Source: Rhina ancylostomus
Taxonomy: Eukaryota
Length of the DNA stretch: 64,000 nt
Assembly: GCA_030265395.1 (NCBI GenBank)
Contig: JARFYF010000001.1
Span: 46,742,427 to 46,806,426 of the forward strand
Direction: 5' to 3'
Positions within the stretch are counted from its first letter, which is position 1; the number at the start of each line of letters is the position of its first letter. Made by a program: the position numbers and the translations under genes. Shown here in pieces: positions 24,301 to 64,000 of this stretch. The notes under the pieces are model-generated. The model had not been told where the DNA came from, ran no database searches, and saw only the letters and a program-made list of their open reading frames with translations.

Positions 24301-27300
24301 CATTGATATTAAAGGAGCAAAATCATCTCAAAGGTTGGAATTCTGGAATCCTGGTAGACCTTGGCAGGTAACAATATAAGAATTTGCTGTGCAAATATAT
24401 TGAATATTCAAAATTTGAAGTATATACTAATGAAACAGCAAGCATACATTACATGAGTGATTTAAGAAACATTTTCAGTTTAAATTTTTCATTAACCATT
24501 GATCTTATCTATAAAATGCTTGCTAAATCAGTCTTGAAAAGACTTTAGAATCTTATTTTGTTTCCTTGGATGCTCTTGACATGCAAATAGTAGAATGTAA
24601 TGAAATATATTTAAAAGGTGGACCCGTGCATTGATACATTTAACAAAATTCAGAGTAGACCTATTTGACTGTGTTTAAAAACTAACATCCATACAATTTA
24701 ATATATATGATTGAAAAGCTAAATACTTACTTGCTGGAGCAGATACATTAACAGGTTCATCAATATATGCAGGTTCACTTGGGCCACATTTGTTACAGGC
24801 AGAAACTCTAAACAGGTAGTCTCGGCCTTGGAAGAGGTCAGTGATAGTAAATTCCAAGTCCTGCACTCTCTCAATAACCTGGAAATGACAGAACGTGACA
24901 ATGATAAAACTGGAATCACTCACAAATAGAGTGTAGCTTCTCCTTTAAAACACAGACAAATCCCAGTGCAGCAGACGCCATTGGTGAATAATTGTCACAA
25001 AATCTCCATGCTAAATATCCACCAAGAAGCAAGAAAAGATTTTGGTTTGCGGCCTGATCCTATCAAACCCTTTAATTTGAGTGGGGAGCTCCATGCTAGC
25101 TTTTCAGGCAACTTTCACTCACATAGAAAAGAAAGTGAGCTCAAAAAAAACCTTTTCATCTTTATGCTGATCGAGTCCTGCATATGGCATTAGATGTGTC
25201 TGAAGAACCCCTGAAATACCAAGACAAGTTTAATGGACCTAACAGAGTTGTTGTATTTTTTTTCCTCAGTAGTGCTGTGAGTGTTACCCAACTGTTTTGA
25301 AGAGGATTTGATATAAAAAAAACATAAGATCTTATAAATAAAGCTGAAGATTCTGCATAAGAAAATCTGACAAAATAATTTATGCCTATACTCAAAACCA
25401 TTCAGAATGGTAATGACATAAGATTGACTTCAATATTTAATTGCATCTAGCCAACTTAATAACAATGGAGTTCTGACGAAAAGTTATGGACCTGAAATGT
25501 TAACTTTCTCTGTCTACAGATACTGCCTGACTCATTAAATATCTCCAGCATTTTCTCTTTTGTTTCAGATTTCTGGCATCTGAATTTTGTTGCTCTACAA
25601 ATGATGGAGCTGGGTTGACATCACAATATTTCTATTTCTATTTGTTTCCTTCAGTATTACAGTCTGCATGGATAATTTACAAAAATTCACTTGCTCAGGG
25701 ACGCAGTAATTTCTTATGTTGCTAGTCTAAATGGGTAACTTCAATGATCACGGTGACAACCTTGAGTCACCAGTTTGAAAATAACAGAAATAAATTGAAG
25801 ATCAATATGATTTATCACTTACTTTGACCCACGTTTTGCGGTTAACTTCACGCTTTTCAATGAGATATCCAGTCAATGGACTTCCACCATCATTATCAGG
25901 CTGATCCCATATCAAATGCACTGTATTTCTACTAATGTCTGACACTTTGAGGTCTTTTGGTACACTTGGCCTTGCTGAGAAGTTAAAACAACAAAGGATT
26001 TTAAAAAATTAATAATTTTTCATTCCATTAATTATTTTCCTTGCTACTGATTTCTTCCATCTCCCAGATATTCATTAAGGCCATGCAAAGTCATGGTGCC
26101 CTGTCTGATCAGGAGCTAAGTCTCAAAATGTTTATGACATCATGATCACGAACTGCTACATCTTCAGTACTGCTCATCTTCATGCCAACCTTGCTCCTGG
26201 TGAAATTTTTTTGACAGTTCAACATTCCCTCTAATTCCATTATTTCACTTTTGTCAATTTGTCAATCAGTACCCTGTATAAAGTCTGAATGTCAAATACC
26301 CCACTAGTCAATTCATCCATAGCCTCGTTGAGCTATATTGATTCCAAAACACATTGAATTATAAGTAATGATTCCTTTTTTCAAATTTCTCCAGAGTTTT
26401 GCACATGCAACTTTGCAACTATTACCAGGCTTACAGCACACCTCTCATCATTCTGACGACTTATTCTCGACTTCTGGATTTTCCTTTCCCTTTGGTTCAC
26501 CATTGCTATTAACTTTGGATGGTTTGAGCCCACTCTTTTGAATGTTTACTTTCAATTTCTTTGACATTCTGCTTTATTCTCTATCTTTAAAAACCTCTCC
26601 AAAACCCATTCCTTCAATTAAGTTTTTAGTTGTTTCTAATTTTCATATTGAAAACTCAGCACTTGCCTCTGTAATGGACTCATTTTGCTCTACTCTTTAG
26701 AGTGTCTTGGCAGTTTTCACTGTTATATATGTAGCATTAATATAAGTCATCTTTAACCGATTAAATAAAAATGCTGTTTGTTAAATATATCCAGATTCTT
26801 ACCAATTACATTCACGTCAATTTCGCCTGTGACAGTTGACACTGCATTTTCTAGTGTCAGTTTATAGAGTCCCTTATCTGGACGCTCACTGGGAGAAATA
26901 ACCAATTGTGTATATTTTGCAGTTGTTTCCATTTTCACACGCTCATTGCTTTCGATAGGTTTTTCATCAACAGCCCATTTTGCCAAAGGTATAGGGTAGC
27001 CACTGAAAGGAACACGAATTTTGAGTGGTTCTGGAACAATAACCTCAAGACCATCTTTGAACTCTCTCAGATCAAGAGAAGGAGCCACTGGAAGAGAATG
27101 CATAATTAGTTTTCAAATGATGTACTAATTGTTGAAAAGAAAAATACCTCACTTTTACTGTTTTTAATATACTTTTGTTCACAAAGGTATATGCTTTACC
27201 ATGGGGGTCATCAGCCATCAGTGGGCCAAGAGCATCAGCTGGATCTGATAAGCCTGCTGCATTTTCAGCAGATACCCTGTAATAATACTTCTTTCCTTGT

Positions 27301-33300: not shown

Positions 33301-36300
33301 AGCAAAAAACAGTTAGGTAATCCAAGGAATATCTATCACATGTGTCAGTCATACTGAAGGGTAGAGAAGGCAAAGTTTCTGAGATTACTAAAACAATATT
33401 AAAAGGACGCTATGAGATATCCAAATAATGGTGAAAATTACTAAAATAAAGTGAAGGAGCCAGCAAAGGATAGTTGGTGGAACTAAGGAATGATGACAGC
33501 TTCTGCTTAGTACTGTTCAGCTTAAGGCAAATCAAAGGACTAATAAGCCCAGCTAGCTGTCTATCTGATCTGGTGCAGTTAATGGTATTTCTGTTTCAGA
33601 TCATATTCTCATTCATGTGTTATAGATGACTTAGGAATAAAGCATTCAGTGGAAATTTCTCAAAATATTATTTTCTGTCAAGTCTCTGGGAACTACCAGT
33701 AAACAAAATTGAATCACTTTTTTTCCTCTAGCATTACCCGGTGATTGTGGAGTCATAGATTATTAGTTTCTTCAGCATCAGAGGCAACCTGATGGGTCCT
33801 GAAGAAGGGTCCTGCCCGAAAAGTTGACTGCCTGCTTTTCTCCACAGATGCTGCCTGGCCTGCTGAGTTCTTCCAGCATCATAGTGTTTTTCATCTAGAT
33901 TCCAGCATCTGCAGTCATTTGTTTCTCTAGCATTCCTGTGAATCTTTTCTGCACTCTCTCTTGTTTAATCACATCCTTCCTATCGAGTGGTGACCGGAAC
34001 TGAACACAGTACTCCAACCGTAGCCGAGGCAAAAATTTGTACAGCTGCAACGTGACAACCCAACTCCTCTACTCAATGTCTTGGCTGATGAAGGCAAGTA
34101 CATCACACACCTTCTTCAACACTATCTACACATGTCTCCACTTTCAGGGATGTATATGTGTTAACACAGCAGCCTCCCTCAACAATAGTTTACAGGTAAA
34201 TTTTCCGAATTCTGCAATTGGATCCAAACACAGTTAGTGCAACAAACGAGGGCCAACTCCAATTCCTAGCCAATGAGTGTATAGTAAGTGCAATTTTTTA
34301 AGGGGTGTGCAGATATTGGAGGTGAACTCTCAAGGTATGACCTTTTAGAATCATTTATTAACAACACTTTATTTTGATGTAAATTCCAATATTTTGAAAT
34401 ATGCAATGAATGTCTATTATTTTTAATAGAATGCTTTCTGTTTGATATTACCCAAAACTCTTCTCAAACTTCAATTGAGAGGAACTAATTCTTTATCTTT
34501 CCATTAGAAGATTCCGTTACCCGAGTAGCAGGAAGTGACAAACTGTTGTGAGATTAAAATTTTGATCAAGGTTACTTGACATCAATGAAGGAATTCACAG
34601 TCAGTCCTACTGACTACAAGACCATTGCATCATTGACTATAGGACCATTACATGTTTGATTACAGAACTACTGCACCATTGATCATAGGACCCTTGATCT
34701 ATGACTACAAGACAATGCACCATTACTATAGTACAAATGCAGAAGAGTAGAAGGTAATACATTCTGCCTGTTCCTTATTTAGACCCTGATTACAATTTGT
34801 TCCCTGAAATACAATTATCAATTGCAGCTTTTTCAGCATTACTCAAGTACCTTTTTCATGAGAACTATACTAACAGCCATTTCCAGATTATTTTACATCA
34901 TTCAGTAAATTAGAACTGGACACTTCTGATTGTGGGTTGTCCTTGCAGCCCCTACACATTTTGTGCATCCAGGCCTCACTTGATAATGTAATGCCATGCT
35001 TAGAGCATTGCAGGGTAACCTGGATGGCATTGCCAAGGGGCATCCATCTTGGTATCACTCCAACAACTCTGACCTGTTTCCTTCTAACACTCAAGTCATT
35101 CCTCATTACCTTATAGTGGTGCATTGACCTCATGGAGGTGTACAAAATCATGAGGGGCATTGATAGGGTGAATGCACACAGTCTGTTTCCCAGGGAAAGG
35201 GAACCAAAAACTAGAGGGCATAGGTTTAAGGTGAGATGGAAAAGATTTTAAAAAAAACTTGAGGGGCAACTTCTTCATGCAGAGAGTGTTGTGTATGTGG
35301 AATGAGCTGCCAGAGGAAGTAGTTGAGGGAGGTACTATAACAACAGTTAAAGGACATTTGGAGAANNNNNNNNNNNNNNNNNNNNNNNNNNNNNNNNNNN
35401 NNNNNNNNNNNNNNNNNNNNNNNNNNNNNNNNNNNNNNNNNNNNNNNNNNNNNNNNNNNNNNNNNGCCTGGCCTGCTGAGTTCTTCCAGCATCATAGTGT
35501 TTTTCATCTAGATTCCAGCATCTGCAGTCCTTTGTTTCTCTAATACAATTTCTTGTTGAAGAATTTCCTCATACCAGAATTAAATTACACTTTGAGCAAT
35601 CTAATCAACAAGTTGACCTCAAAAAATGTGATTTTTTATTCAAAGCTACATGGTCTCATCCATTTATTACATAAATAGAAAATCAAGCTAATCCCCACAA
35701 ACCTAAAGGAAAGAAACTTAATACTTCTATCTAATTTGTCCTACTACATCCTCAGATAATGCTGAGTAAATACTGAAGTTGATATTGAATCTTAGTAGAT
35801 ACGAAGTTGCCTAGAAAACTCTCCATTTGCAAAATAATCATTGCAAAACAAAATACGAGAAAATTAGTACAAAACTATTGTTGTAACTGATTCATCAGGT
35901 CAGAATTAGACTCAGGCAAACTCTGTTGAATGAACAGTAAAAAAAAAATCCTCCTCTTTATCATCTGGGCACTGGAGCAAATAAAATGGTACTATGGAAA
36001 CTGAACAAAGTTCAGACTTAGGGAAGGTCAGATCACTCTCTTGGAAAGTGTACAGGATAATTTATTCTCCATGAAAACTTATTACCTTAAACTGTGATAG
36101 AAATAAAAGTGACAACATACAAGTCTCATACCTGTAAAGACATGTGAATAGAAATTCATCTCTGGTTGATTCTACTGTGTATGTTAATGTGGCAGAGGCA
36201 GTATATTGCACTTGTGTCCAAAATCCAGATGCATAGTGCATTAAATGCTTCTGACCAGGGATGAGTTTCTATGCACTGTTATCTAGTCTTTTGCTGAAAT

Positions 36301-39300
36301 TTAAATTAGTGTCTTCACTTACTAACATTATGAAAAAATGTAAACAAATAAAATGATTTTAAAAAGGGCAAACCTTTGCACTTTCACGGGAAACTTCACA
36401 TACAAATTTTGCTACTTCCTTTTCTTTCACCTCAAGATCAGTCAGAGGTTTTGTGAATTCAACATGAGGAGCTATGAAAGAAACAGAATCTTTTTAGCAG
36501 ATAAGACTGTAATTTATATTGGCATCAGTGCAGATCTAAAGAATGTAGCAAAATAGGAACCAAAGAACAGGAGAATGCCATATCGATCCTACTATTTTCC
36601 TGATATTTCCTGTAGTTCTTGTAATATAATTCCTAGTTCTGACCATCCTACAACCATGTATAAATAAAGGTGCCACACTGAATTTGGGCCTGCATAATTT
36701 ATGTGCTTATGTGGGCCATTAAAGCCAAAACATTTTTATGCTCTAATATTTGAAATATACATCACTTATTTCTTTCTCCAGGTTCTATTACCTAACACCT
36801 TATAGTTTTCCCTTTCCTGTAGTGCCTGAGGGACAATTTCTGAAAATTAGGCAACTCCATTCCCCTTTGGTTGTTTTAAAATTGTTATTATCTCTTTCCC
36901 TGAGTCTTCTCATCGACTTATGACCTCCAATATACACTTTCTACTCATTCCTGATTCTAGCACAATTCAAGCAAAGTCTCAGTGATACAATTCTTCGCAT
37001 TCCAAGTGCTGTTACTGGTGTCCCATGAAAGAGAACTCTCTCTTAGGAACAGAGTTGACGACATAATATTGCTTTGTTTCTACTGAGAAATTTTGGCCCA
37101 GTTTTTCTTTGTTTTTGTTTTATTTTTGTTTGCTTAGTTTATATTGTTTATATTTTTTTATATATTGATTTGGGTTTTTATCTTTTTTTAATGTATATAA
37201 TAAACCTTTTTTCTTTCCTTTCTTGTATACTTCCTTCATTAACTAAGAGATCGTTGGACTTTGTTTTTTCTATATTTTATTGTATGGTTATCTAAGATTT
37301 GAGTGATAACNNNNNNNNNNNNNNNNNNNNNNNNNNNNNNNNNNNNNNNNNNNNNNNNNNNNNNNNNNNNNNNNNNNNNNNNNNNNNNNNNNNNNNNNNN
37401 NNNNNNNNNNAAGATTGAAAAAAAAGAAAGAAACTCTCTTTCTCATAATGCTCTTTCAGTCACATGTTCACTGCCCTAATCTGTTTATCATATGAAGTTA
37501 TACAGCACGGAGATAGGCCCTTCGGCCCAACTGGTCCATGCCAACCAAGATGCCCCATCCAAGCTAGTTCCATTTGCCAGCATTTGGTTCATAACCTTCT
37601 AAACGTTTCCAATCCATGTACCTCTCCAACTGTCTTTTAAAAGTTGTTAGTGTATCTGCATCAGCCACTTCCTCTGTCAGCTTGTTCCACATAGATACCA
37701 CCCTTTGTGTAAAAAGGTTCCCCTCTCACCTTAAGTCTATGACCTCTAGTTCTTGATTCCCCGACCTTGGGAAAAAGACTGAGTGCATTCACCCTATCTA
37801 TGCCCCTCAGGATTTTATCCACAAAATCAACTGACTCATCTATTTATGCTAATTTATATGTGACTCACATAACAATTATAATTAAACACCCAAGATGTAG
37901 TTCTAATAATTTAGCTTTTAGAAATCTCCAAAAAGGACCTCTTCCTTGTATATTGGATAGTCTTCAACTCACAGTCCAACTCAGTGGTTTTGAACTAAGC
38001 TTGGAGACATGTACTGAAAATCTGCTCAAAAAGTGGAATAGCTATCCACAAATTCCCACATCCTGAAATTCAGAGACCCAATCTGTTCAGCCATTACTTT
38101 CTGTATAGTATTTATTTTTCTGGTCAGTAGGAACTTTTTTTCTTTCTTTACACACTAATTTTATTAAACTCTAAAACACCAGGTACATTTTAAACTATTT
38201 ACTCCTTCAAGCTTGCATGAACCACTATATATGAACAGGAGGCAAGTGACAGCACCTTCTCTCCCCCTCTGTATTAAATTCTTCTCTAACCAAATTCTCC
38301 ATTCTGAACATGGTGCATTATAGACTTACGTTCCACTGTGAGAAAACAAGAAGTCNNNNNNNNNNTTCAGGTTTGCAGTCATGGATAATAAGCTTTCGGA
38401 TTCTTCCATCAGCAATGATCTCATGCTTCTTGGTTTTATGAATTTCCTTTCCATCCTTTAACCAAGTAACCTCAGCATTCTCTCTAGACACCTCACACTC
38501 TAGTGTAGCTGTGGCTTCTTCTTCAACTGTTTGGTCCTCCAAAGGTTTTGTAAATTCAGCTGGAGGTTCTGTGAAAGATTTAAGTGAAAATTCATTGCAT
38601 AAATTACCAAATGTACTGTTGTGGAAAAACAATAGTTTGATATCTAGTTAAAGTGTTGCATCACTTACCTTTAACAATGAGCCTGGCAGATGTTGTGAAG
38701 TCTTTAGCAGTGAGTTTAACGTCACCAGCCTCATTTAATTGAACGTCTCTTAGGGTGAAAGTGTGCCTTCTGCCTTCGGCGCGAGTAACAACCTAATCCA
38801 AAATAAGTTTTAAACTGATAGCAACATAACAATACAATTACTTACCACGTTAAAAATATCAAAAATAACTCAAGGTAAACTCTATTTAATGCATTTCACT
38901 CTAAAACAAATTATCTAGTTCAAACTACCACTGCATTTTTGATCCTGATAATCTTTCATAGCTTTCAAAATGTGGGATTTATCAAACAATGCCACTAATA
39001 ATTTTAACTGCTACAAGATATTAAGAAATTATATTAAATTTCCATACATTTTATTTTCTAAATTTCTTAAATATTTCAGCTATCTGTAGTCTTCTGTTTA
39101 TTACATGCTAATATTTTCAAATGAATAATTGAAGCCTTAATCAGTTAATTGTAGATTTTTTTTGTTATTCCACTTTACAATCTCAGTTTTTTAGTACTCC
39201 AAAATTAATACTTAGTATTCCAAATGATAACAAATGATCTATTCATAGCAGCCAACCATGCACATGGAACTGGATGTATTGTTACAAAGTTAGTGCACCA

Positions 39301-42300
39301 TAGTGAAAACCTACTGCCAGTTCAAAATGTAGTGTTAATCTTAATAATACTTTAAATGTTGTTCTAAAGCATCACTAGTATTAAGATTAGGACAAGTAAT
39401 GATGTCCTTGTCCTAGTGATGTATATATTTAATTTTATTTGTTGTCAGACTATTTAAACATTTGCATTTCACTATTTCAGAAATTAATCTCTTGACTATC
39501 CTTTATTTTTCCTATGCCACATTAATGACATATTTTATTGTTTCACTGATAGTCAAATTTCAGATCAGTTCAAATGTAGTTCATTGGGCCATGTAAACCT
39601 GAGCAGAATTCATAGATTGAACTGCTGTATATTAAATCATTTATACAAAAATGGCAAACTAAATTAAGTAAATTTAGGGCATTCAATTTTACAATGATGG
39701 GTCTGTCGATGTTTCTGCAAATTATGGATACTTACATCCAGATAAACACAAATGGAGTTAAAATCATGATGTAAATTTTTCTTATCCATTGTAATAACAT
39801 ATCTCCTTTCATTGTTTTCAGTGAATGTAAAATCATCTTAAAAAACTAGGGATCAAGGGGTAAAATTAAATGTTCTATTTTGAAAAGGAGAACTGCAAAT
39901 TCACTTTAACCCCAGAAAGAATTGTACATATCTATGTACTGTTTCAAAGATAAGCATCTATTCTATTTGATGGAAGGACCTTGTTTTACAAAAGAAAGTA
40001 ATGATTGTTTCTTCTTGAAAAAGTGAAAACATGTTGATGTTAAGAAAATACATTTTTGCAAAATTATGTATAAGCTTCGTAATTGATAACAAAAGAGATA
40101 AGTACTTTTCATTGAAGTTATTTGATTATTCCTTTTCACATCAAGCAATCTTTAGAAGACATTGAGGCCTTACGTGCAAGACAAGAATGAGAGAACATTA
40201 TTGAAACATACAAAATTCTCTTTGGGCTTGACAGGGTAGATGAAGGATGATGTTTTCCTTGGCTGGGATGTTTGGAAGCACTATTCACAACCTCAAAATA
40301 AGATGTCAATCATTCAAGACAAAGATGAGAAGAAATCTCTTCACCTGGATGGTAATTAATCTTTGGATTTCTCAAACCANNNNNNNNNNNNNNNNNNNNN
40401 NNNNNNNNNNNNNNNNNNNNNNNNNNNNNNNNNNNNNNNNNNNNNNNNNNNNNNNNNNNNNNNNNNNNNNNNNNNNNNNCGAATCACTATTCAAAACCTC
40501 AAAATAAGATGTCAATCATTCAATACAAACATTATAAGAAATCTATTCAACTGGATTGTAATTCATCTTTGGATTTCTCAAACCAAGAGGGCTGTGGAGG
40601 CTTAGTCACTGAGTATATGATATTACTGAACATAGGAAGTCTGAGGGGATGAATGAACTTCTACTGCTTCCATTTTCTAATTTTTATGTTCTTAGTACAT
40701 ATTTTTACTGATTTTTAATCCAGTAGAATACAATGAATCAAAAAGTCAGCATTATATTTTAAATACTGCACATCAGCATTTAAGTGATTAAAAATAGCCA
40801 CAGAGGAACATGGCTTATTACATTGAACCCCAGTCAAATGTCTGATGTAGAATTACCATCCACCATAGCCCCTCAGTTCAGTGGATCTGTGGAGCCAGAT
40901 CTCTTGAAAATGTAGACAAAATACCTCTCAAATACTTTTAAGATTCCCATGAATTATAAAAGAATAAAGTAACAGCACAAAATATATATCAACATACTCT
41001 TTCACTGGGCTCAAGTAACTTGTTCTTCAAGAACCATTGGACTTCAATTCCTTCATAGGACAGTTCACAATCAAAAGAAGCCGAATGTCCAGCAGTTACT
41101 GTCACATCCTTAAGGGGCCGGAGTAAGCTGATCACTCGAGCTTAAGATGAAAAAGACATTATATACCTTTTAGTTTCAGAAGAACTGTTCCTTTAATTTA
41201 AAGTTCTCAGGAGACTGCAACCCTTTAACTCTCTGCACTTAAATTTAAAAGCTGTAATGCACATTCTATTTCTTCAAAAGCAATATGCCCAGCAGTAAAT
41301 CTGAGACCTTTGAGGCATCATTTTAACTGCTGATCATAGTTATTCTCATTGCTACTTGAGGCATTACGCCTAAAATTCAGAACTGAATGGTTAAATGACA
41401 GTGGCTTTGACAGCTGCCTGCTTCTGTCCATCAGCCTTACTGGCATTTTCAAAAATTGCAGGTCTGGTAATATATTTGACATCTATATGCAAATTACTAC
41501 TCCCAAGGGTAAAAATAACAAAGCATTGATGAAGGGTCTTGACTCAAAAACTGACTGTCCATTTTCCTCCATAGATGCTGCCTGACCCGCTGAGTTCCTC
41601 CAAGGCCTTGTGTGCTGCTACAAACAAAGCATTGGTTGGTTTTAGGCGGGAAGCTTACAGCTGTTCAGTAAATTCATGCCGCTTTGGATATTCATTAGTC
41701 AAAGCCAAATAAAATGTTGGGAAATCTTAATGGCTTATCAAGTGCAGTTTTTCTTGACTAGTCACAGTATTGGTAATGTAACATTAATCACACATCTACC
41801 TTTGACCCTCAAATGAGCATTGGTTTTGGCGTTAGCAGCCTGGAAATCAACTTCACCAGCTTGATCCATTTGCACGTTGTACAATATAAGAAAATGTTTT
41901 GTGCCTTCCTTTTTGATCTCACAGTCCTGAATTGTAATTAAACAAAGATAAAAGTTTTAAGGAAGGAATAGAGAAAAAAGGTAAAATTTAACCAATTTGC
42001 TAATATTAAAACTCACTGCAGAGGGGCGCAATTTCTCTCCCTTCAGTTTCCAATTGCCATGTACATCATCTTCAGAAATTTCTGTCTCAAAACGAGCAGT
42101 TTCTGTTTCTGTGACTTCAACACTGTACAGTGGACGCAATATCTTAATGTCACGTTCTGAAACAAAATAATAGAAAATGCTATCCTTCAAGAAACATGCC
42201 TTAATCTGTTTAAAATACACTTAATTTACTAAAAATGCAAGTTCTGAGTCATCTCAGTAAACAACTCTAAAAAGACATAGAATAAACAGGTTTTACAGCT

Positions 42301-45300
42301 AATAAGATGGCATGCATTTAGTTTTACCTTCAATGTTTAGTTTGGCTGATGTGTTGTCAGAGCCACAGTCACAAGAATATTGCCCCTGGTCGTTCTTCAT
42401 AGCTCGCTTAATGATCAATATTCGCTTCTTCCCATCTGCTTTAATCTGAATATTCTTTGAAAGAATCAGTTCTTTTCCATCCTTAAACCATCTAACTGGA
42501 GCAGCAGATTTACTGACTTCACACTGGAAGACAACTTCATCTTTTTCTACAGCTGTGTAATCTTGTAGTTTACTGATAAAATATGGTTCACCCTCTAAGA
42601 AAATCAAAAGGTGAGTCAAGTTAGAAACACAAGATTAAATGCAACACCTCAGTTCAAAGCTTGATTAGCAAATTAATTTATGTGTTTACATATTTACCAA
42701 GAACTGTAAGTTTAGCCTCTGAACTTTTGTCCATTGCTTCAATTTTGATGAGGGAAGTATCATCGATGGTCACATCCTTGAATGTAACAGTATGGATCTT
42801 ATTCTCATCTTTCATAGTCACTGATCGACTTGGATGCAGTCGGATGTCATTTTTGTACCATACAACTGGAATGTTCTCGTGTGAAAGCTCAGTTACAAAT
42901 TCTGCAGTTTCACGTTCTTTTACAGTCTGGTCTTCAAGAGGTCTGGTGAATTCAAGTCTTATGCCTGTGAAAAATGAATTTATGAACTTCATGCTACATG
43001 AATAAGAAAACAGTTTTAACTGCTGATGAACTTATCCACTGCAATTTTTACTTGCCTTGGATTACTAGTTTGCCACTTGTCCTCTTATCCTCTGCTTCAA
43101 AAATGTATTTTGCTTCATCATCAAATGCAGCTTCTTTAACTGCCAACACATGTTTTGTCCCTTCTGCCAACATTTCAAATTTATTACTAGGTTTAATTTC
43201 ATCACTTCCTTTTAACCAGCGGAAAGTCTTGGCCTCTCTGGATACTTCACATTCAAACTTTGCTTCATCTTTCTCATACACATTCACATCATTAAGTGGT
43301 ACAATGAAAGTGAGTGGAATTTCTGGAGGGGAATGCAGGAAATAAGAAATTTAGACTGATAATGTTAATTATAAAAATTGTTCATGCCTCTGTTACAAAT
43401 GTACAAGCCTAAACTATAATTATGAAAACTGCAGAATAAAAAATATTCGCAGCTCTTTCAAGTGAATTCAAATTACCTTTGACTTTCAGAGTTGCTGCAG
43501 ATTTAGCATTTGCAGCCTGGAAAGACACTTCTCCAGAATCACTTAACTTGCAATTGTAAAGGGTCAGAATATGTTTTTTGCCATCCTCAATAATCTCACA
43601 GTGCTGTAAGTTATAAGATAATCAAAGATAAATTTGGATGACATTTATATATATTAAAAACTGTGCAATCTTTTTTACCCAAATATATTTAGTTTTCTAT
43701 GTATCACGGAGCATTCATTAAGATCATGATTTTGTCATGAAAGTGGCTAATTAACTAACATAATTCTGAGGTAAAATTATTTATCCCAGAATAATTCCAA
43801 AACCAAGAATGCAAAATTTAATTTCAAACCAAATTAAGAAAACAACGTACAGGTGACATGAGCAAAGTTTCGCCTTTCAGCTTCCACTGGAGATGAACAT
43901 CAGTTTCTGAAATCTCCACTTCAAAACGGGCAGTTTCACCTTCAAAGATTTCTATGCCATGTAATGGGCGCACCACCTTGATGATGCGAGCTGTAATCAC
44001 ATTAGTATTAAAAATTGGAGTTTAAAATTGCACATTTAGAAACTATAACTGATGAAAAATGCATACATACTTATTCATAAAGAATATACCTTCAATATTC
44101 ACAGAGGCTTTTGTCTTGTCAGTTCCACAGTCACATTCATATACACCCTTGTCTTTATCGTCAGCTTTTTTGATTGTCAGAATACAGCGTTTCCCAATAA
44201 CTTTCATTGAAACTCTTTTTGATGCTTTGATTTCATTGCCATCTTTTAGCCATTTAACTGGTACTTCTTTGCTGAGTTCACATTCAAGACTGATCTCATC
44301 TCTCTCTACAGCAGTATAATCTTGTAGTTTCACAGTGAAATAAGGATCAGCCTCTGTGGATGAAAGAAAAACAGTTAATGTTCTGCTTGAAGAAAGGTTG
44401 CTTCTCTGACATACATTTTCAAAACTTCTTGTTAAATATCAATAATAATGTGGTTCTCCTTTTAAATATTTTATCAGTACTATTATGATATGAACTGCAC
44501 ACAACACATGGTGCCATAATTCAAAACAATTGCATTACTCAATCCTCACCTAGGACATTCAGATTACATTTTGTGGAGAGCTGGGCAACTTCTGCCCGTA
44601 TCTGACATGTATCATCAAGAGTTGCTTCTTTAATTTCTAATGTGTGCTTCTTCCCATCACTGGAGACCAAAACAGTTCTGCTTGGATGAATTTTGTTTTC
44701 ATTTTTGTACCAAGTCACTGGGAGATTTTCATGTGACAGCTCAATTTCGAAATGAGCTGTGTTACCTTCTTTGACTGTCTGATCTTTTAGTGGTGTAATG
44801 AACTTCAATCGCATACCTTGAAATATAAAGTCATACATAAGCAGTTAATACTACAGCAATTTAAGATCATGTAATTAATTATTCATTTCATATCTAAATA
44901 TTGAAAGGTGAAATAAATTGCTATTATTTGCCAATCAAATAAAATGCAGATGCTGAAAATATGAAATAGAAACAGAAAATGTTGAAAACACTCAGCAAGT
45001 AAGGCAATATCTATGGGAAGAGAAACCGAGCTAATAGTTTAGGTCAAATACCCTGCATCAGAATTGGGAAAAAGAGAATACCAGTTAGTTTTGTGCTGTA
45101 GAGAGTGCGTGGCAGGATCAAGATAGGATGCAACTCAAGTTGTTGTGAGAGACCAGAGCTCTGTGAAATAGATCAGATGTTATCTGAAGTTGCAGAATTC
45201 AATTTTGAGTCCAGAAGGCTCCAACATGCCTACGTGGAAGAAGAGGTACTGTTCCTCATTAATCTATCAATTGTATAACTTCACCAACAGCCTATCCCCA

Positions 45301-48300
45301 CAGTAACTGTGGTCTCACCCTAATACAGATATTCCTTTCAACCTATCCATCCATCTGCCACCCACTCTGTAACTTAAAACTAACTTGTTTTCCTTTCTTT
45401 TCCACTTCTAATGAAGGGTTTTCGATTTTAAATATTAATTCAGTTTCTCTTTCCACAGATGTTACTGGACCTGCTAAGTGCTTCCACCATTTTTTGTTAC
45501 CATTACTTGGCTCATTGCCCTTTCCTCTGAGCGCCACTCCAGTGATTTCACACATAATTTAAGCAGACACTTGAGTGCATATTTGAGGTACTACAGCTTT
45601 TCAGGAAAAATACTTAAATTGAGGTTCTATATTGCTCCTTAAATTAATTTGAAAGATGGGTTTATTTGAAATAGAGCAAGGGGGGTTTTCCCTAGTCTCA
45701 TGGGCCAATATTTATCATCATTAATGCAATATATTTGGTCATTAGTTCATAGCAGTTTGTGGGAAAATTGTGTTTGTTTTTTTTCTGTAATACTTCTATG
45801 GCTGTACTTCAATAAGTATTTCATTGCAGTCTGAGACATCCAGAGCTAGTGGAAGCAACTAAGAATCCAAACAACTATATGTTTTATAGATTGTTTTCTG
45901 GATTTATGGTAAGGAGCACCAAAAGCCTATTTGGTTATTTAATATACATGACATATTCAGAATAATGAGATTTGCATCTTTACTTTCCTTATATTTTCAA
46001 AAAACTTCCAAACAAGGATGGTTGCATAAAACAATTAACTATTTCATATTTATTGGAATAGGACTTCACAAACATTCTGTTACACAGGCTCAATGTAGAC
46101 AAAAGTGAAAATATTTTAATTAAGTGCTATAGGCACATTCAACCAATTGGTAGTTTAAATATAAATTAGAAAAAAACCTACCAGTCACGGTCAGTTTTGC
46201 AGTTGATTTCTTGCCTTCAATTTCAGCAGTATAATCTCCTTCATCATCAAAGGTTGATTTATTTATAACAAGAATATGCTTCTTCCCATCTGTGACTATA
46301 TCATACTTTTCACCACTCTTAAGTATGTCAGTGCCTTTCATCCACAAAATTTTGGGAACCTCCTTGTTAAGTAGACACTCAAATCGTGCCTGACGTTTCT
46401 CTGGAACAGTCACGTCTTTCAATGGTGTCGCAAAGTCAATTTCTAATTCTGTTAAACATATAACATGTTAGTGAAAGCTAAATTAAGAAAAACTGGACAG
46501 TCCAAATTTTGGGAAAATTCCTTTGTTATTACAAAGAAAACTTCTCTGCATTCATCAGGCATTGTTAATTACCTTTAACTCTCAAATAAGCAATGGATGT
46601 GGCATTGCGTGCCTTGAAGACAACTTCACCAGCTTGATCCAATTTGACATCATGAAGGACCAAGAAACGCTTATTACCTTCTGATTTTATTTAANNNNNN
46701 NNNNTGCAAAATAAAGATCACAATTTATTGTTTCCATAAAAGAACAATGCCCTCAAATTCCACATTTTTCATAATAAAGTTTTAAAATCTGGAGAAAAGC
46801 TTACACGTGATGGGCGCAGAATCTCTCCCTTGAGCTTCCACTCAACCGGAACATCTTGCGAGATCTCCGTTTCAAAGGTGGCTGTTTCTTTCTCATAAAC
46901 TTCCACACTTTGCAGTTCAGTAAGTATGTCTATCTCTCGTTCTATAAATACATTAAATACATTTTTTCATTAAAATATACAGCTAATGACAGACCTGAAA
47001 AATCTAATGCATTTTCATGAGTTCCTGACTTACAGAATCATCATCAAGCTGTATAAGGGGAAATCAAAACAGATAACTAAATACAGGAGACTCATCATAT
47101 GGAGGTGAAGTCTAAATATCTGTGGTAACCACAGCTGAGTTAATATTTGAAGCAAAGACGGCTTTAATATTTCAGAACATGTCAGCTTGTAGGCTGACAA
47201 AGTGAGAACTAATCAAGCACATTGATCAAGGACTATAATTCATGTGGAGAATAAACATTAGCACAGACTTTATACGTTGAATGGCCTGTTTCCAGGTTGT
47301 AATTTCCAGAATTATTTTATTAATAGCAAGAATGATATTGTTGGGCAAGAATATTCATATAGTTAATTCATTACTTCTGCAGAGAAGGTTGAAAATTTTG
47401 GGTGGGATTGTGCTAGTATCACTGCCTGAGATCTCTACTGGCCCACATTCAATTGTTCCAGATGTGGAGGGACAACCTCACCAGCTAGCTACATCTTGGA
47501 GACAAGGTCTTAGCATAACTAAACCTCAGAAAATGCTAATCAGAGGTCCTGCCCCAGAACACCCTTATAGCCTTTGACAAAAGGCAAAGCAGGAGTGAAG
47601 CTTTGACATCTACCAGTCTATAAATGAACTTAACAGTTTTTAAATACATTAGATTAATACTTTTTAAATGTTTTTCATTGTTTAAAGTTAAACAATTAAA
47701 GAAAAATCTTAACTGCCCCAAACTGCAGGTCAATAATTCCTCAATTCCTGAAGTGAAAGGGTTTCAACAGGGTCCCCAGCATCAGGCTGGGGAATCACAG
47801 CAAGATTGGTTTGACTCCTGAAATCCCTTGGAGTGCAGTTATAGATGAAGTGGTGCACATTACACAGTAAGTCTCAAAAGGACTTACAACAGATCTGAAG
47901 GACTAGCTTCACTTCAAACAGCTTACAAAGCAAAGACCAGTGCAGCCTTTAGTTCTGTCATCGGCCTATGACAGAGTTTGAATAGAGGCCTGTTGCTGAA
48001 ACTCGCAANNNNNNNNNNCAAACACTTTCTCTGATATAGATGATGATGGATGATAGGCCGCTATGTGTCTGCCTGAGTGATAAAGTCAGCTCGTTCCAGT
48101 TGCTCAACAATGGACTCCCACAGGGCTCTATACTTGCATCAACATTTTTCAATGTCTTATCAGGAGACATGCTACCGATAGAGTTATGCAAAATTGTATA
48201 TGTGAATAATCTTGTTTTAGCCACACAAGCACCTATCAAAAATGACACAGGGTCCACTCTGAATAGGGACTTAAAGATCATAAAGGATTATTAATGGAAT

Positions 48301-51300
48301 TAGACATTCAAGTCAAAATCCAAGGAAACAATAGTCATTTTGATTACTATCCCACCAATCAAATCTTGAATTCTACAAAAATATGAAAGTTACCCCACTC
48401 TAATTTGTCAGAGAATGATTCTAGACTCTGGGCTAACTTTCAAAGTAAGTAGCTGGAGTGATGAAGACCACTTGGCTCTAAGCATATTCAGTAGCTGTAC
48501 TGTACATTAGTCTGGACCAGATGCTGTCATAACTGCTTTGCCAGTGTCCACACAACAATGTAATGTGGGACATCACTGGAACACTAATACCATAACTGCC
48601 TGATGGGCAACATTACTCTTCCATTCATATGCATGACACTGCATGCCTCTGATAATTAGTGAATTGAGAAAAATGAAGACTTGCCCTCATACAAGTTCCT
48701 CACCAATGCCACTTACTTGAAGTGGCACAACCCCTTTTAGATCCACACACCCCAGGAAAGCAATTACAGCCCTGATGAAGTTTGGAAAGTCATATGGAAC
48801 TCATCAAAAATCACAGACACATCTTGTGATCTCCTCTATAGGTTATGGCCATTTCTAAATTGTATTTGGACAGATCATTGCAAATCAATTGATATATAAA
48901 TGGAAATTGAGAACTTCTGCAATATCTGACCTACATACAAATAAAAATATATTAAAAAATATAGAAATCAACTATCTGGCCCTTTGAGCAAGCTCTGCCA
49001 TTTAGTAAGATCATTGCCTAAACTGTACTTTTCTGCCCAATCATCGTAATTCTTAACTTTCCTGTGGACCACGTCAATTGGAAGCAGACAATGGTACTCC
49101 AAGTTATCCAACATACAATTCATAAATATAAAAAAACATTTACGTTCTGCTCCCTCGGGTGCTGTATTCTAGCTTCAATGTCAGAGTATAAAATTATAGT
49201 TGTTGCTCTTGGCCACATAAGGGCACTATTAGGACAAATGACCAATTATTAGGTCAAAGGTAGTTTAAAGGAGTGTATTAAGGAATAATACAAAGTTTTA
49301 AGGAAACAATTCCAGAGCTGAAACTATAAGCAGTTGTAGAATGCAGAGCATAAAGAAGATAAGAATTGCAAAAGCATAGAGATCTCAGAGAGCTAAAGAA
49401 TGAAGTGGATTATTATAGAGATAAGGAGGGGAATGACCATGGAAGCAATTGAGAGTAAGGATCAAAACAAAGATCTTGCCATTGCAGAAGTCTGTGCAGG
49501 CCTCCACATAATGTGTGATAATTGAATTGATTTGGTGCAAGTTAGATTAAAAGCAAAATAGTTTAGAAGAGCTCAATTTTAAGAAAGGTGTAAGAAAGGA
49601 TATGACCTAGAAGAGTACAGGAATAGTAAAGTCTAAAAGCTTAGACTTAGATTTCAGCATCATATGGATGAAACAGGGGTAGAACTGGCTGATGACAAAT
49701 TAGCCAGCTCCACCCGTCTCATCCATCTGCTGCTGAATTCCTCATTTATGCTTTTAGACTTTACTATTCCTGTTCTATTCAAGATTAGGAGGAAAATTTG
49801 TTAATTCTGTTGATTATTGAGGCACTCTCTCGAGAACATAAGTTTAAGAACAAAGGAAAGTACTGAGGTAATTTCATTTCTGGGGTTGTTAAAAAAGGAA
49901 TGCTCACCTAAATGGCAGGTGGAAGCCATTGTACTTTTGAAACAAAAAGTAGATAAATTTTGAAAAATGTAATTGGTTATGAAGGAAGGAAAGAAATTGG
50001 TCCTAAATAAATGGGACTTATGCCTTACCTCCTTATGTAAACTTGTTTAATTCTAAGTGGGAATATATTGAAATATTCTGTTAAACTTTCCATTTTATGT
50101 TGTTAGACAGCACAGAAATTTTTACATTAAATCAGTGACTTGCCTTTGTTGTTGGCCACAAATAATTTGATGAATATACATATTACTTACATATATCTGC
50201 ATATAAAAATTATATACATAATATTTATATTTTGTAAATAGATAATATAGATCATAGATAATTAGATAGATAATAAATAATTAGGTAAAGATTTTTGAAT
50301 CAAGCCTCAAAAAGCCTCTTGTGGCCTGAGCCTGCGTGTACATTCCTTTAGCCCATATAGTGAAAACGACTTGAACTGCTGTTAGAATTGATGTAGGCAC
50401 TAGATTATATTTGGCAAGTGTGCCTCCAACCCTGCTGCCTTTGCATTGCCTTCGTCCTGAACGATGGATGGTTCTGAACATCTGGTGACTGGCACACAGA
50501 CCAGTTAAGCAACGGTTCAATCTTGCATTGAGTCTCACCCCTACTCTTGACTTTAAGTGAGACCTCCCCCTCGCCCCCATTAACATGCTGGGGCTCACCA
50601 TTCATCTAAAATGTAACTGTATCAGACACATAACTACTGTATCTACAAGAACAATCCAGAAACAAAACATTCTACAGCTGGGTATCCTCATTTCCTGACT
50701 CCAGACATGAATTAGGAGTGCATTGAAACACACTCCACTTGTCTGAATGAGTTCTAACAACAATTCCAACAGTCAAGATCAACCCCATGCAGAATGAAGC
50801 AATTCACTTGGCTGGCACTTCATCCACCATCACCCACATAATGTACTATCTACAGAGTGCACTGCAATAACTCACCGATGCTGCTTGGGCAGCACTTTCC
50901 AATTCTTCAACTTATATCCTCTAGGTTACCATGTCTAGATGATATAACCACTGCAATGTCATCACCTCAGCAAGTTCACTTAAAGTCACACTTTAACTCA
51001 GCTTGGGAAAATACCTTCATCATCTCTGGGTTTAAATTGTGAAATTCCCTACCCCACAACTCTGTATGAGAAGTTTCATGATAACAACTGCAATGGTTTA
51101 GTGTGGTAGTTCACCACCACCTTCTTAAAGGCAGTTAGCGATGGCCAATTAATGCTCGCATTACCAACCATGGCCACATCTATTAGCATCTAGGAAAGAA
51201 ATGCAATTTACAATGTTGACCAAAAACTACAGCAAAATGAATTAAAATTTGTGAACCTACAATTATTATTAATATATGCATAACCAGTACTGGAAGAACA

Positions 51301-54300
51301 AGTGGGATACACATTTCTGCAAGTAACAGAAGACTTACCATCAACTATCAAATTGGCTGTAGAGGCCTGTCCTTCCACTTCCACTGTGTATTCACCAATA
51401 TCTTCTGGAGTTGCATTCTTCACTGTGAGAGTAAGAATTTTGCCCACTTTCTTAATTTCAGTTTTTGCAGTGGGTTCCATTGGAATTTCTTCTTCACCTT
51501 TGAACCATTTGATATTTGGTGTGTCTTTGGCAATTTCACATTCAAAGACAGCAGTTTCTTTTTGTTTGACCCGTTGGTCCCGAACAGGTTTAACAAACCA
51601 TTTCCTGACAATCTCTGGAAGATAAAAAGATACAAACTAAAATCAGTCCTCAAATGGTCATTTCTTGTTGCTTAAGTTATATCAAAACACCCATCTGGTT
51701 GGGTTTTCCAGCATTTCTGCTCTTGTTTCATTCATCTTTACATCTTTACTAACCTTGTACATTAACTTTTCCTTCACATCTTATATTTTCAGTCTCAACA
51801 GAAAACATTCCGGCATCTTCAAAATCAGCACTTGTGATAGTAATGGAACGCTGCAACCCAATGACGCTAATTGCATATCTGCTGTGTGTTTCATCAATTG
51901 GTTCACCATCCTTCTTCCAAATCACAGGCTTGTCTTTTGTCAGCTCACAGGTCAGATATAGGGGCTGTCCTTTGAAGACAGTGATTTCCTCATCCAATGT
52001 TTTAAAGAAGGCCACTGGTAATTCTAAAATAGTTCAGGAAAATAGTAATTAACCAAAAAAATTTGCAAAATCTTCAAAAGCCTTTTATAATGTCTGGTAC
52101 TTTAAATCCAGTGATTTATATTATATTGGCTGTTAAAATGAAACTAATGGAGAAAGTATGTAACTGACTAGATTAGTTTAATAACCATCCTAATTTCACA
52201 GGATTCCTAATTTGCACCTATTATAACGTAATGAACAGTCTTGTTTTTGTTTTGCTTCAGACAGGAATGCAAAGTACCTTTGACAATGAGCTTTGCTGTG
52301 GACATCTTTTCTTGCTTGCCGAGGCGGCCTACACAGGTATATTCACCCGTATCTGAAAGCTGCACATCAATGATATTCAACTTTCTATCCTTGCCATCGG
52401 CGGTGAATTTGTATTTTGGACCTTCTCTTATAGTACTCCCGTCCTTCATCCANNNNNNNNNNTTAATGCCGTAGATGGGGAAATCAAGCATTCGAATATA
52501 GCAGAAGAACCTATTGACTCCGCTTCTTCCAAAACAACATCTTGTAACTCTTTGACAAATTTCAGCTGGACTGCTTTAAGTTGGAACCCTGCAAATGGTG
52601 GTTCCTCTGAAGGTGGCCTCCCTCCACCTGGTTTAAGTGGCTTCTTGTCTCCTTCTCCAGGTGATGGTGTCTTTCTCGCTAGAATTCAGAGATGAACATA
52701 AATAGATTGTATTTTATTGTTTTTATTGCATGCTTCTGAAGAGGATTTTATGTGAACCAATTACTTAGACGCCATGTGTCAGTTTCAGTCAATAAAATTC
52801 AATGATGACATATATAGAGCACTGAAATTGACTACCCGAGAAGAAACCAAACTCTGAAAATTTGGTTTTGTTCCTTCTCTAAGGTAAATTGATGCACGGA
52901 AGCCCACCATTCAAAGTCTATGCATTCCATCATGCGATAATGATTGCAGACGGCAAGATTTGCACCACATTCAGCCATTATAACTTCAGCTTGAGTAGAT
53001 TTGCAATCTTAGTCTTCAGATATAACCAAGTAATTTTGAGCAGCAACAGTTCTGTATAGCCCAAAACATTGCATTTTGCTCATAAACAGAGGAAGACACA
53101 TGCATTAAAGTATCAAATCTAATATTGTGATCACAATCTGATTATGTACATGGAACATAGTAGGAATTTCTCTGCTCACTTTTGCAGCAAGTCTTCCTTA
53201 GCAACATTAATTGCAGAAAATATACAGCAGCAGTATACAAATTGAACTCCACATGTTGCTTTATGAAGCTGCAGGATGTAAAGGACAGCAATACATGCAA
53301 AATTAAACAACAGGATGTTAGCCAGTCTCTGCAGCCATTTTGTAACTGGGAGGCCATACAAATTGATTTGACATTACATCTTAAAATAACTGAAGTATAG
53401 TAGAGCATTTAATTTTGTTTGCTCTAATGTGCATGATATTTGAATAGGATACTTCAGAAAGCAATATAATTTATCCATTTAAATAGATGTAGTACATTGA
53501 GAAAGTATTGCATACTGTATGTGTGCATTTTATGTTCTTTGGTGCGTGAGGATAAAATATTAGTGTTTACAATCAAGCATGGATTTTTACTGTGATTATG
53601 TGCATGATAGCCCTTCTCACCTCTTAATAAGCCTCTACCTTTGCCGGCCTCATCAGCTGGTGCCTTAGCATCTGCAGTGAGATAGTAACATAATCATAAG
53701 CACATCATTACTATCCTGTAAATCAATAAATGTTATAAAGTTTCTGTAACAACCAGTGGGGAAAAAAATGATGAGGCTATAAAGTGTAATTTAAATGAAA
53801 AAATATATTTATGTCTCATACATAATATACATTATACATATTATGTATGAAAATATGTACAAAAATGATGAAAAATGGTACCTTAATTACTTTGATATAC
53901 TAAAAAGGTTTATTCATGCGACCAAAGGAAAATTAACATGAAAAAAGATGTATTAGGTTAGAATGAGTAAAATATATAACCATACAATTTGAATGGTTTA
54001 TAGAAGTCCTTGCCTTATGAAATATAATGAAAAATGATTTTAATTCATTCATAGTTCTGTTAATAGCAACATTAAAGCAATTTAAGACAATTTTTCTTTG
54101 GAAGTCATCGGACTACATGGACCAAACACAAGCAACAAACATGAATTTTAGACCACACTGTTGACTACAATACTTCATGCACACAAATATAACTTGCATT
54201 GCCAGGTGAGACAAGTACACTTAACAAAGATGAACACATACAACATCAAGGAACATTAATCCATTTTCTAAAGCACAAGATATGAACAATCAGTTTGGCA

Positions 54301-62814: not shown

Positions 62815-62948
62815 AAATCAAAAAACACCATATGCTGGAAATCAGATATAAAAACAAAAACGCAAGTAATACTCAGCAAGTCAGGCAGCATTTATTGAGA
62901 GAGAAACAAAGTTAATGTTTCAGGTGGATGATCTTTCATCAGAACAAG
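62815..62948 (-). mobile_element. Penelope-like terminal repeat (inverted)
   Basis: Minus strand gtt-CTGATGA-A-AGATC/CACCT-GAAAC-ATT-aac. Confidence 0.7.
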
Positions 62949-63004
62949 GAAAAGCCATAAATTGAACATGCTCTAAATTGCAGAAAAAGAGGTTGCTTTA
63001 AGTT

Positions 63005-63840
63005 TTCATTCCACTCCGACCTCTCTAGCTGCCTACACTGTTCCAAGGAAGCCCAATGTATGTTCAACGAACAGCATCTGATCCTCCCAACAGATACATT
63101 AAAGCTATCAAGACTCAACAATAAATTCAACCATTTCAAATATATGCCTTGAAATATATGGATGAAAGATCGTTAATCTGTATTGTTAACTCAAGCTTTC
63201 TCTCTCCACAGATGCTGTCAGATCTGCTGAATATTTCCAATACTTTCATTTATTTCACAGCAGTGTTCTGTATTTCACAGCTCCAGCAGTGCTTTTTTTC
63301 CCCAGTCTCCTTTATCCTTTTTCATCTCCATTTATATCAGGGAGATCATTTGCAATTAACAAACTTTCTTCACATTGTTTCAGCCAGCAGCACTACATAT
63401 TTTCTCCTGGTCTCCAGCCTTTCACAAACATGCCCTTTGTTCTCTCCACCTTCCCTCTTTCTCTGAAACTTGTTCAATTTCTATCTTTTCCTAATTCAGA
63501 TGATGAGACAACATAAACCATTACCTCAGTTTCTTTCTCTACAAATGCTGTCTGACCTGCTGAGTATTTCCAACATTTCCTGTATTGATCTGAGATTTGC
63601 AGATACAATATCTTTCAATCTTAGACAAATATTTTATGCCCAGTATGTTGCATTCATAATATATGCTTTTTTCAATGTGAATAGAGATCTTAATACTGAA
63701 ATATTGAGTTACTTGTAGTCCTGATGAAAGGTTGTTGACCTGAAGAAAATAACCCTCGCTTTTCACAGATGCTGTTTGACCTGGTGGGTGTTTCCAGCAA
63801 TTTCTGTTTTTCATCTGAGATTTGCATATCTGCAATATCT
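63005..63840 (+). mobile_element. Penelope-like ORF C-terminus plus three tandem terminal repeats
   Basis: HSDLS..LHCSKEAQ..NEQHLI...RLNNKFNHFK, then repeats near 63160, 63500 and 63716. Confidence 0.7.
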
Positions 63841-64000
63841 TATTTGTGTATGTTTCATGATAATTATTTTCTTAATGATTATAGATTAATTAGTTAATAG
63901 ATTAATATGATTAACTTGATTATAGATCATTTCCATTCTTGGTAAATATTTGTTTCTCAGGCCTTCATATTCAAATACATTTCTTGTGTTCTCTGATTTC

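Follow-up and report, generated by a model that had tools for sequence, protein, structure and literature searches.

Minimal hammerhead ribozymes were described in 2014 across animals in the terminal repeats (pLTRs) of metazoan Penelope-like elements (PLEs), and both this motif class and its place in PLE terminal repeats are therefore already known (Cervera and de la Pena 2014, PMC4209133). According to the parts of that paper drawn on here, these ribozymes occur as scattered solo copies and have weak activity as dimers, and within those parts there is no cartilaginous fish, shark, skate, Callorhinchus, Leucoraja and Squalus all being without mention. A literature search found no paper on elasmobranch PLE hammerheads; Repbase and Dfam, in which the repeat is probably catalogued, lay outside that search. 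The role of the PLE ribozymes is still called unclear in the sections consulted of Craig et al. 2021 (PMC8557442).

The family described here shares with the published PLE ribozymes a short helix I, a U-rich 5′ flank and an occurrence mostly as solo copies or opposite-strand pairs, with few copies in full elements, and the oyster row of the published alignment has a nearly identical layout (PMC4209133, in the portion used). Its coding unit resembles the endonuclease-bearing (EN+) PLEs of the Neptune and Nematis types, which, in the sections drawn on, are given a single ORF with reverse transcriptase (RT) and C-terminal GIY-YIG, a CX2-5CxxC linker and a CCHH motif, partial tandems, an inverted terminal repeat, an optional tail of ~30 bp, and TATA and Inr-like motifs within the repeat (PMC8557442; Arkhipova et al. 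2013, PMC3846280). In contrast to these elements, most copies here are stumps of 100-135 bases with a fixed 5′ edge. The family also recalls Poseidon PAc of Anolis carolinensis, for which the available sections of Frangieh et al. 2024 (PMC11167929) report a tail produced by RT starting at two internal sites, priming on both strands, and a main template of uncut RNA with no reads ending at the cleavage site; PAc, however, belongs to the Poseidon clade and has its ATG inside the ribozyme, whereas the ATG here follows 171 nt after the start of stem I. Metazoan non-LTR retrozymes, reported in the one chondrichthyan sampled, are similar in their type I hammerhead, in the dimer dependence of the vertebrate forms and in a proposed origin from PLE terminal repeats, but as far as the excerpts of these papers go they consist of non-coding repeats in tandem and have canonical ribozymes and circular RNAs, whereas the present family has dispersed copies, a minimal ribozyme and a place in a coding element (PMC7229834; bioRxiv 10.64898/2026.07.22.740005).

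The window analysed is the whole stretch of 64,000 nucleotides from Rhina ancylostomus. At 33795-33829 on its plus strand, a minimal type-I hammerhead motif stands at the front of a 134-bp repeat, and every element of the layout proposed by the first-pass annotation can be read there in the sequence (Table 1). The motif is very probably the terminal-repeat minimal hammerhead of an autonomous EN+ PLE; the stump of 134 bases left here likely derives from the 5′ end of an uncut mRNA and is likely inert.

The motif at 33795 and its surroundings in titin

Table 1. Coordinates of the hammerhead motif, its repeat and the further family members in the window
Feature	Position	Strand	Remark
Stem I, 5′ strand	33795-33798	+	
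CTGAAGA core box	33799-33805	+	
Extra A	33806	+	
Stem II	33807-33817	+	
GAAA	33818-33821	+	
AG	33822-33823	+	
TT	33824-33825	+	Predicted scissile bond after 33825
Stem I, 3′ strand	33826-33829	+	
Rest of terminal repeat and tail	33830-33928	+	Ends at the family's long 3′ end
Possible target-site duplication	33726-33735	+	10-base match to 33925-33934
Tail-only subfamily A fragment	35466-35541	+	Profile match; directly behind N gap 35366-35465
Older subfamily C copy	25469-25590	+	Core intact, stem II mismatched, palindrome CpG-decayed
Subfamily B copy	41522-41612	+	C3 and G12 positions altered
Decayed copy	44940-45065	-	C at position 9, GAAA broken; sense to titin pre-mRNA
Decayed subfamily C copy	45404-45500	+	Core broken
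Subfamily C copy	62826-62950	-	Core intact, two mismatches in stem II, palindrome decayed; sense to titin pre-mRNA
Decayed subfamily C copy	63156-63260	+	Core broken
Decayed subfamily C copy	63494-63610	+	Motif mostly eroded
Decayed subfamily C copy	63717-63845	+	First core half intact; GAAA and triplet broken

Titin is the host gene; it is encoded on the minus strand, and PDB titin chains are the top matches. Pfam I-set and fn3 domains are found in 7 of the 10 ORFs tested in the window, and all 67 Ig/Fn3-like ORF pieces lie on the minus strand, none of them overlapping a repeat copy. The proposed placement of the copies in titin introns agrees with the exon map, as the nine copies named earlier and a tenth fragment all lie outside mapped titin exons; with no exon mapped beyond 52.5 kb, the four copies at 62.8-63.8 kb are "outside mapped exons" in that sense only. 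The 33795 copy is antisense to the titin pre-mRNA, and the window as a whole holds eight antisense and two sense copies, which are too few for a claim of orientation bias. Both the ribozyme front and the tail of the repeat contain words made of a pyrimidine tract plus AG, which could select against sense copies in introns.

Copies in the window were located with a profile built from seven of them, giving ten members in total. Both minus-strand copies, which were not among the seeds, were recovered (E 1e-21 and 1e-20), and the recurrence of the layout at nine named positions is confirmed. The 33795 copy belongs to the young subfamily A. The claim that every copy carries core substitutions is contradicted by three of the nine named copies (33795, 25469 and 62945), which keep 13 of 13 core bases and have their damage in the helices. 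At 33795, the GGG/CCC pairing of stem II is present as noted, but its three pairs reflect a one-base deletion from a family stem II of five pairs. A C-to-A change in the helix III palindrome has also removed the dimer palindrome, the dimer duplex having +3.8 kcal/mol in this copy versus −1.7 kcal/mol for the family-majority ACGU. The probable inactivity of the copies, which the first-pass annotation had tied to their cores, thus stands on other grounds, namely the lost palindrome, broken stems, the lack of a partner and the antisense position of 8 of 10 copies, all judged from sequence. The 33795 copy is predicted to be, and likely is, an inert stump at the titin locus, where it gives no sign of function.

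The 59-base spacer between the possible target-site duplication and the motif matches only itself in the assembly. A spliced-exon origin of this flank was considered and rejected, its single assembly match being itself. The tail-only fragment, 1.6 kb away from the 33795 copy and oriented like it, has the diagnostic bases of that copy, and the 5′ portion of the fragment is hidden.

Searching the window with the covariance models of Rfam 15 gave seven matches at E up to 10, none of them a hammerhead. Folding of single copies against shuffles gave z values of −1.5 to +1.4 in 10 of 10 sequences, none better than the shuffles. Hence, the evidence for a hammerhead is family-level and not per copy. 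The missing Rfam match and the absence of any z below −1.5 are what a chance likeness of a shark repeat to a short RNA motif has in its favor, a reading rendered extremely improbable by the family as a whole, which shows all listed features of the PLE ribozymes (CUGANGA with an extra base, G10.1-C11.1, GAAA, palindromic C-G at 15.1/16.1 and an NUH triplet) and carries the motif in the published position, as given in the parts of PMC4209133 used here.

Other features of the window are observations in their own right. An inverted pair of another repeat (35138-35256 and 37704-37822, 82% complementary) lies in the same intron region and reads like the 3′ part of what we take to be a CR1/L2-type LINE. 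Two E/K-rich frames on the minus strand, 54290-56347 (685 codons) and 58322-58876 (184 codons), contain tandem units of 159 and 36 bases and are probably lineage-specific PEVK-type titin exons. Fold-back elements at 49607-49783 (76-base arms, 79% complementary) and 57648-57721 (a hairpin with weak miRNA-model matches) are probably MITE-like.

Association with a Penelope-like coding unit and genomic abundance

In longer copies, the motif is preceded by a pyrimidine-rich 3′UTR and, further upstream, by an ORF with RT motifs, a CX4CX2C linker and a GIY-YIG domain with the CCHH pattern. The element thus has the order RT, zinc-finger linker, GIY-YIG, 3′UTR, hammerhead and tail; in tandem copies, the tail leads into the next ORF, the counterpart of 33830-33928 continuing into the ORF start. 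The endonuclease end of a full-length relative was reached by 27 HSPs. In 13 of these, the same strand carries the motif 257-641 bases further downstream (10 rows belong to subfamily A, two of them one locus, and 3 to subfamily B), and most of the 14 HSPs without a motif run into a locus end or an N gap. The EN piece is 40% identical to a 955-aa RT+GIY-YIG protein (E 4e-27), and the closest named RT relatives come from rays and sharks (62-75% identity), followed by molluscs, coral and sea cucumber. Two database proteins, named as nicotinamide riboside kinase 1 of a skate (P0002) and chitinase domain-containing protein 1 of a ray (P0035), contain the RT of this PLE, which in them is a matter of exonisation or an annotation artefact.

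A tandem junction is preserved in L304 (G000:C2762:1-3075), which reads through an open EN frame, the 3′UTR, an intact hammerhead, the tail and an open ORF start. The EN frame is open over 212 codons and, from the ATG, 661 codons are open to the contig end; both the RT and EN halves are stop-free, with ~45 codons between them absent from the contig. The Pfam matches of L304 to RVT_1 (E 3.7e-5) and GIY-YIG (E 2.3e-4) fall just under the gathering cut-offs, and all Pfam matches on the genome's own RT/EN pieces lie below these cut-offs; L304 is 49% identical over 677 columns to a protein (P0006) that passes both. The CX2-5CxxC linker and the CCHH motif, as defined in the sections of PMC8557442 consulted, can be read in the translations of L304 and L044. 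The linker points to the Neptune or Nematis type.

L304 is a circularly permuted tandem unit with an intact ribozyme and a CpG o/e of 0.68, versus 0.46-0.47 in decayed copies. Among 40 scored matches, there are no close dispersed relatives; the best other long matches are 76-84% identical, and one match of 94 bases reaches 93%. L304, whose contig is unplaced, may be the master of an old subfamily and may still be competent.

In further loci, too, the motif is followed by the beginning of the ORF; five of them include the upstream repeat and several lack it. A DNA walk 5′ from the RT found no tandem junction in 30 loci, whereas a protein query did find one, and no complete element with two same-strand motifs was seen within one contig. 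Of 184 random copies, 58 have a head-to-head partner, and in 42 such cases a long 3′ end is combined with a short one, the two ends being ~30 nt apart. Partial tandems, an inverted repeat and the ~30 bp tail are thus all present, as in EN+ PLEs. Given that the motif lies 260-640 bases behind an RT and GIY-YIG ORF and that L304 preserves the tandem arrangement, the repeat is assigned to the terminal repeat of an autonomous PLE and not to a retrozyme.

To estimate abundance, three profiles were run on 100 segments, each 10 kb long and placed at round coordinates on large scaffolds (891,083 non-N bases of a 2.2 Gb genome, small contigs falling outside this sample). The segments contain 235 repeat matches, compared with 0 in reversed sequence, which extrapolates to ~5.8e5 copies (bootstrap 4.9-6.7e5) and 2.7% of bases, a count that takes in pieces without the ribozyme and scores inverted pairs twice. 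One intact subfamily A 34-mer has 483 exact occurrences in the genome, and 34-mers with the core variants U4A and A9C have 32 and 36, the reversed patterns giving 0 throughout. These counts set a repeat family apart from chance. Median identity to the subfamily majority is 92% in A (n=9), 84% in B (n=84) and 82% in C (n=98), subfamily A being the youngest and C the oldest, and copy-to-copy variation is mostly CpG decay. At a looser threshold, which yields 241 random copies, 79 are parsable; the core is preserved in 15 and, together with the stems, in 3. Strictly intact motifs, at ~1% of copies, should therefore number several thousand genome-wide, about the Xenopus and coelacanth counts in the part of PMC4209133 consulted, next to a homology count of ~5.8e5.

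Solo stumps far outnumber coding pieces, with 10 RT/EN HSPs in 5 of the 100 random loci against the 235 repeat matches. This excess favors a reading in which the 135-base unit is a non-autonomous SINE-like or retrozyme family of its own, transcribed and mobilized from solo stumps, possibly via circular RNA. Solo repeats that retain the upstream box could indeed be transcribed, and at L293 five motif units of 35 bases stand in tandem. Such an independent family is nevertheless quite improbable: a stump beginning at stem I is missing the upstream box, and the same RNA could not be made from it again, every sampled subfamily extends into coding sequence, canonical hammerhead loop contacts are absent from the family, and RNA reads show CpG-decay variants of many copies on both strands. 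Moreover, the 58 same-strand neighbor pairs include no tandem arrays of 150-450 bp; four, from one locus, are spaced at 35 nt and the few at 160-430 nt are single pairs. What was first proposed as an abundant ribozyme-bearing PLE or retrozyme family is thus retained as an abundant PLE, with RT/GIY-YIG in cis, head-to-head inversions and the ~30-nt tail, while the retrozyme part is given up for a family that is dispersed and belongs to a coding element.

Each unit of the L293 tandem (1390-1570, minus strand; G000:C1 near 120.93 Mb) begins where stem I does and extends to the 3′ strand of that stem; a normal tail follows the units. The tandem is the sole such case among the same-strand pairs and could derive from an RT jump across folded stem I, or from slippage.

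Ribozyme structure and core variants

When copies are clustered by their tails only, all cluster majorities fit the published minimal hammerhead consensus, and CUGANGA and GAAA, whose conservation the ribozyme assignment presupposes, are present in the majorities of subfamilies A, B1, C and L304. The extra base between positions 9 and 10.1 is a nearly invariant A, and the palindromic helix III is ACGU in the family majority. At pair 10.1-11.1, 72 random copies show G-C 26 times, G-U 30 times, A-U 10 times and no pair 6 times, part of the G-U being CpG decay. In the same 72 copies, pair 2.1-1.1 occurs as C-G 26 times and as U-A 23 times, and L304 shows the U-G intermediate of this swap.

Across these 72 copies, 77% of cells are paired, compared with 13-42% with slid partners, and the cells with two-sided change exceed 500 of 500 shuffles. 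Pair-count covariation measures do not beat the shuffles (289/500 and 224/500). The expected stem covariation is therefore borne out only in part, by one clear compensatory swap (C-G/U-A beside the core) and, at the foot of stem II, a G-C/G-U/A-U series, but not by the pair counts, and it represents a handful of evolutionary events among related copies parsed in a way that favored stem bases.

Two subfamilies have amplified while carrying core changes. Of the 31 copies in one cluster defined by tail, 22 have U4A, a variant that stands in cis to the ORF at L104; in another such cluster, 17 of 18 copies have A9C. Neither subfamily appears in the examined part of the PMC4209133 alignment. In the portion of PMC3088659 drawn on, hammerhead core changes mostly cut activity sharply, and some natural variants work; a literature search for cleavage rates of U4A or A9C found none. 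The amplification of both variants, with U4A in cis to an ORF, would suit a motif that is no longer a ribozyme in this lineage but is kept as a promoter, an RT stop or a protein-binding structure, its cleavage being vestigial. In the same direction, hammerhead mutants are reported to have no effect on in vitro insertion of the anole PLE (PMC11167929, in the sections available). Complete loss of the ribozyme is still somewhat unlikely, because subfamilies A and C and the L304 tandem have lost nothing of the core, the extra base or the palindrome and still carry a valid triplet, with stems changed in compensation, and because the A that follows in A9C may take the place of A9.

The 5′ edge of the copies and the insertion template

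For the analysis of 5′ ends, coordinates were counted from the core C as 0 in 184 random copies (191 minus 7 duplicate rows), 50 of the 241 having been dropped for a low score or an adjacent N, and matches picked by a flank-containing query were kept out. Match starts at base 66 of the L304 query, whose upstream sequence is divergent, are not independent evidence for the edge. The 5′ ends concentrate on the base that opens stem I and show no such accumulation at the cleavage site. Among the 104 copies that reach −10 to −1, 44 end there, versus 0 of 45 at −40 to −31 and 1 of 45 at −50 to −41, and with a tail-only query 11 of 29 ends fall at −11 to 0. The match to the family drops to background at −5 (12 of 35), the last retained base being the A that opens stem I. 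A second bump at −100 to −91 (8 of 28) shows that peaks in old copies can be created by alignment limits. In a few copies (L259, L294), an extra G is seen at the junction, as copying of a cap would give, an anecdotal observation.

The start of stem I lies in what we take to be an initiator-like word, and an AT-rich, TATA-like hexamer is found ~31 nt upstream of it in subfamilies A, C and L304, less sharply in B. Among 22 non-inverted copies, 9 have a target duplication adjoining the stem I edge (mean 0.8 and maximum 3 under the null); the other 13, like the 33795 copy, have no adjoining duplication. Fairly likely, the mRNA begins with the base that opens stem I, ~170 nt before the ATG, and is driven by a TATA/initiator promoter within the repeat.

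The same edge can be read as a 3′ splice site instead of a transcription start, the stumps being derived from spliced RNAs. A pyrimidine tract followed by CAG at −5 to −3 ends inside stem I in all three subfamilies, and 35 truncated copies have A13/C12/G6/T4 at −5, A20 at −4 and G24 at −3. These bases presumably also fit the consensus of exon ends. The Penelope intron of D. virilis offers a precedent (PMC4209133, in the part consulted; PMC2377424). Splicing is, however, unlikely to account for the edge: where target duplications adjoin the motif (9 of 22), no room is left for an exon; only 1 of 35 flanks matches element sequence in sense, and that one is a neighboring tail copy; the flank of the 33795 copy has no second match in the assembly; and no GT..AG joint occurs among the RNA-seq joints listed.

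The scissile bond is spanned by 152 of the 184 copies. A fossil of cleavage in the 5′ ends was sought and rejected, as no excess lies at the site, with 9 ends in the 6 nt around the bond compared with 23 in the 16 nt upstream. Given the non-random 5′ edge and the lack of an excess at the cleavage site, an mRNA that starts at the ribozyme and is copied by priming in the tail is the simplest reading. By analogy with the anole element (Frangieh 2024), the RT would prime at two internal tail sites ~30 nt apart. Priming in the cap-proximal tail would yield stumps of 100-135 bases that end at the RNA start, priming in the downstream tail would yield longer 5′-truncated copies, and priming from both target strands would yield head-to-head pairs. 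The ribozyme, to judge from Cervera 2014, would have to dimerize through its 4-base palindrome in order to cut, and its cutting would be weak or assisted by protein; cutting would be dispensable for insertion, and the insertion template would be uncut RNA.

Raw RNA-seq reads of a relative, from fragmented RNA, cover both strands with CpG-decay variants of many copies and without a pile-up of starts or ends; among the joints listed there is no unit-length back-joint, in a library not designed for circles. This pattern fits passive read-through, fragmented reads being no test of cleavage.

A wider proposal, which is put forward tentatively, is that the elasmobranch PLE hammerhead is the first domain of a capped mRNA with a TATA/initiator promoter and that the half-million stumps are a fossil map of its 5′ end, laid down by RT priming near the cap. 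Insertion would proceed from uncut RNA, subfamilies with core variants would still spread, and cleavage might serve as a brake or a translation switch on tandem transcripts instead of being a step of transposition.

What this family adds to the known class is its scale, at ~2.7% of the genome, and material for tests. Its copies record uncut templates, likely the start of the RNA, and core changes tolerated by a spreading element. A unit of the L304 type, with open frames and an intact ribozyme, would offer a second vertebrate PLE for in vitro work, from another clade than the anole element, and the subfamilies and the G000:C2762 tandem with its open frames provide a ready-made natural series in which to test what the PLE hammerhead is for.
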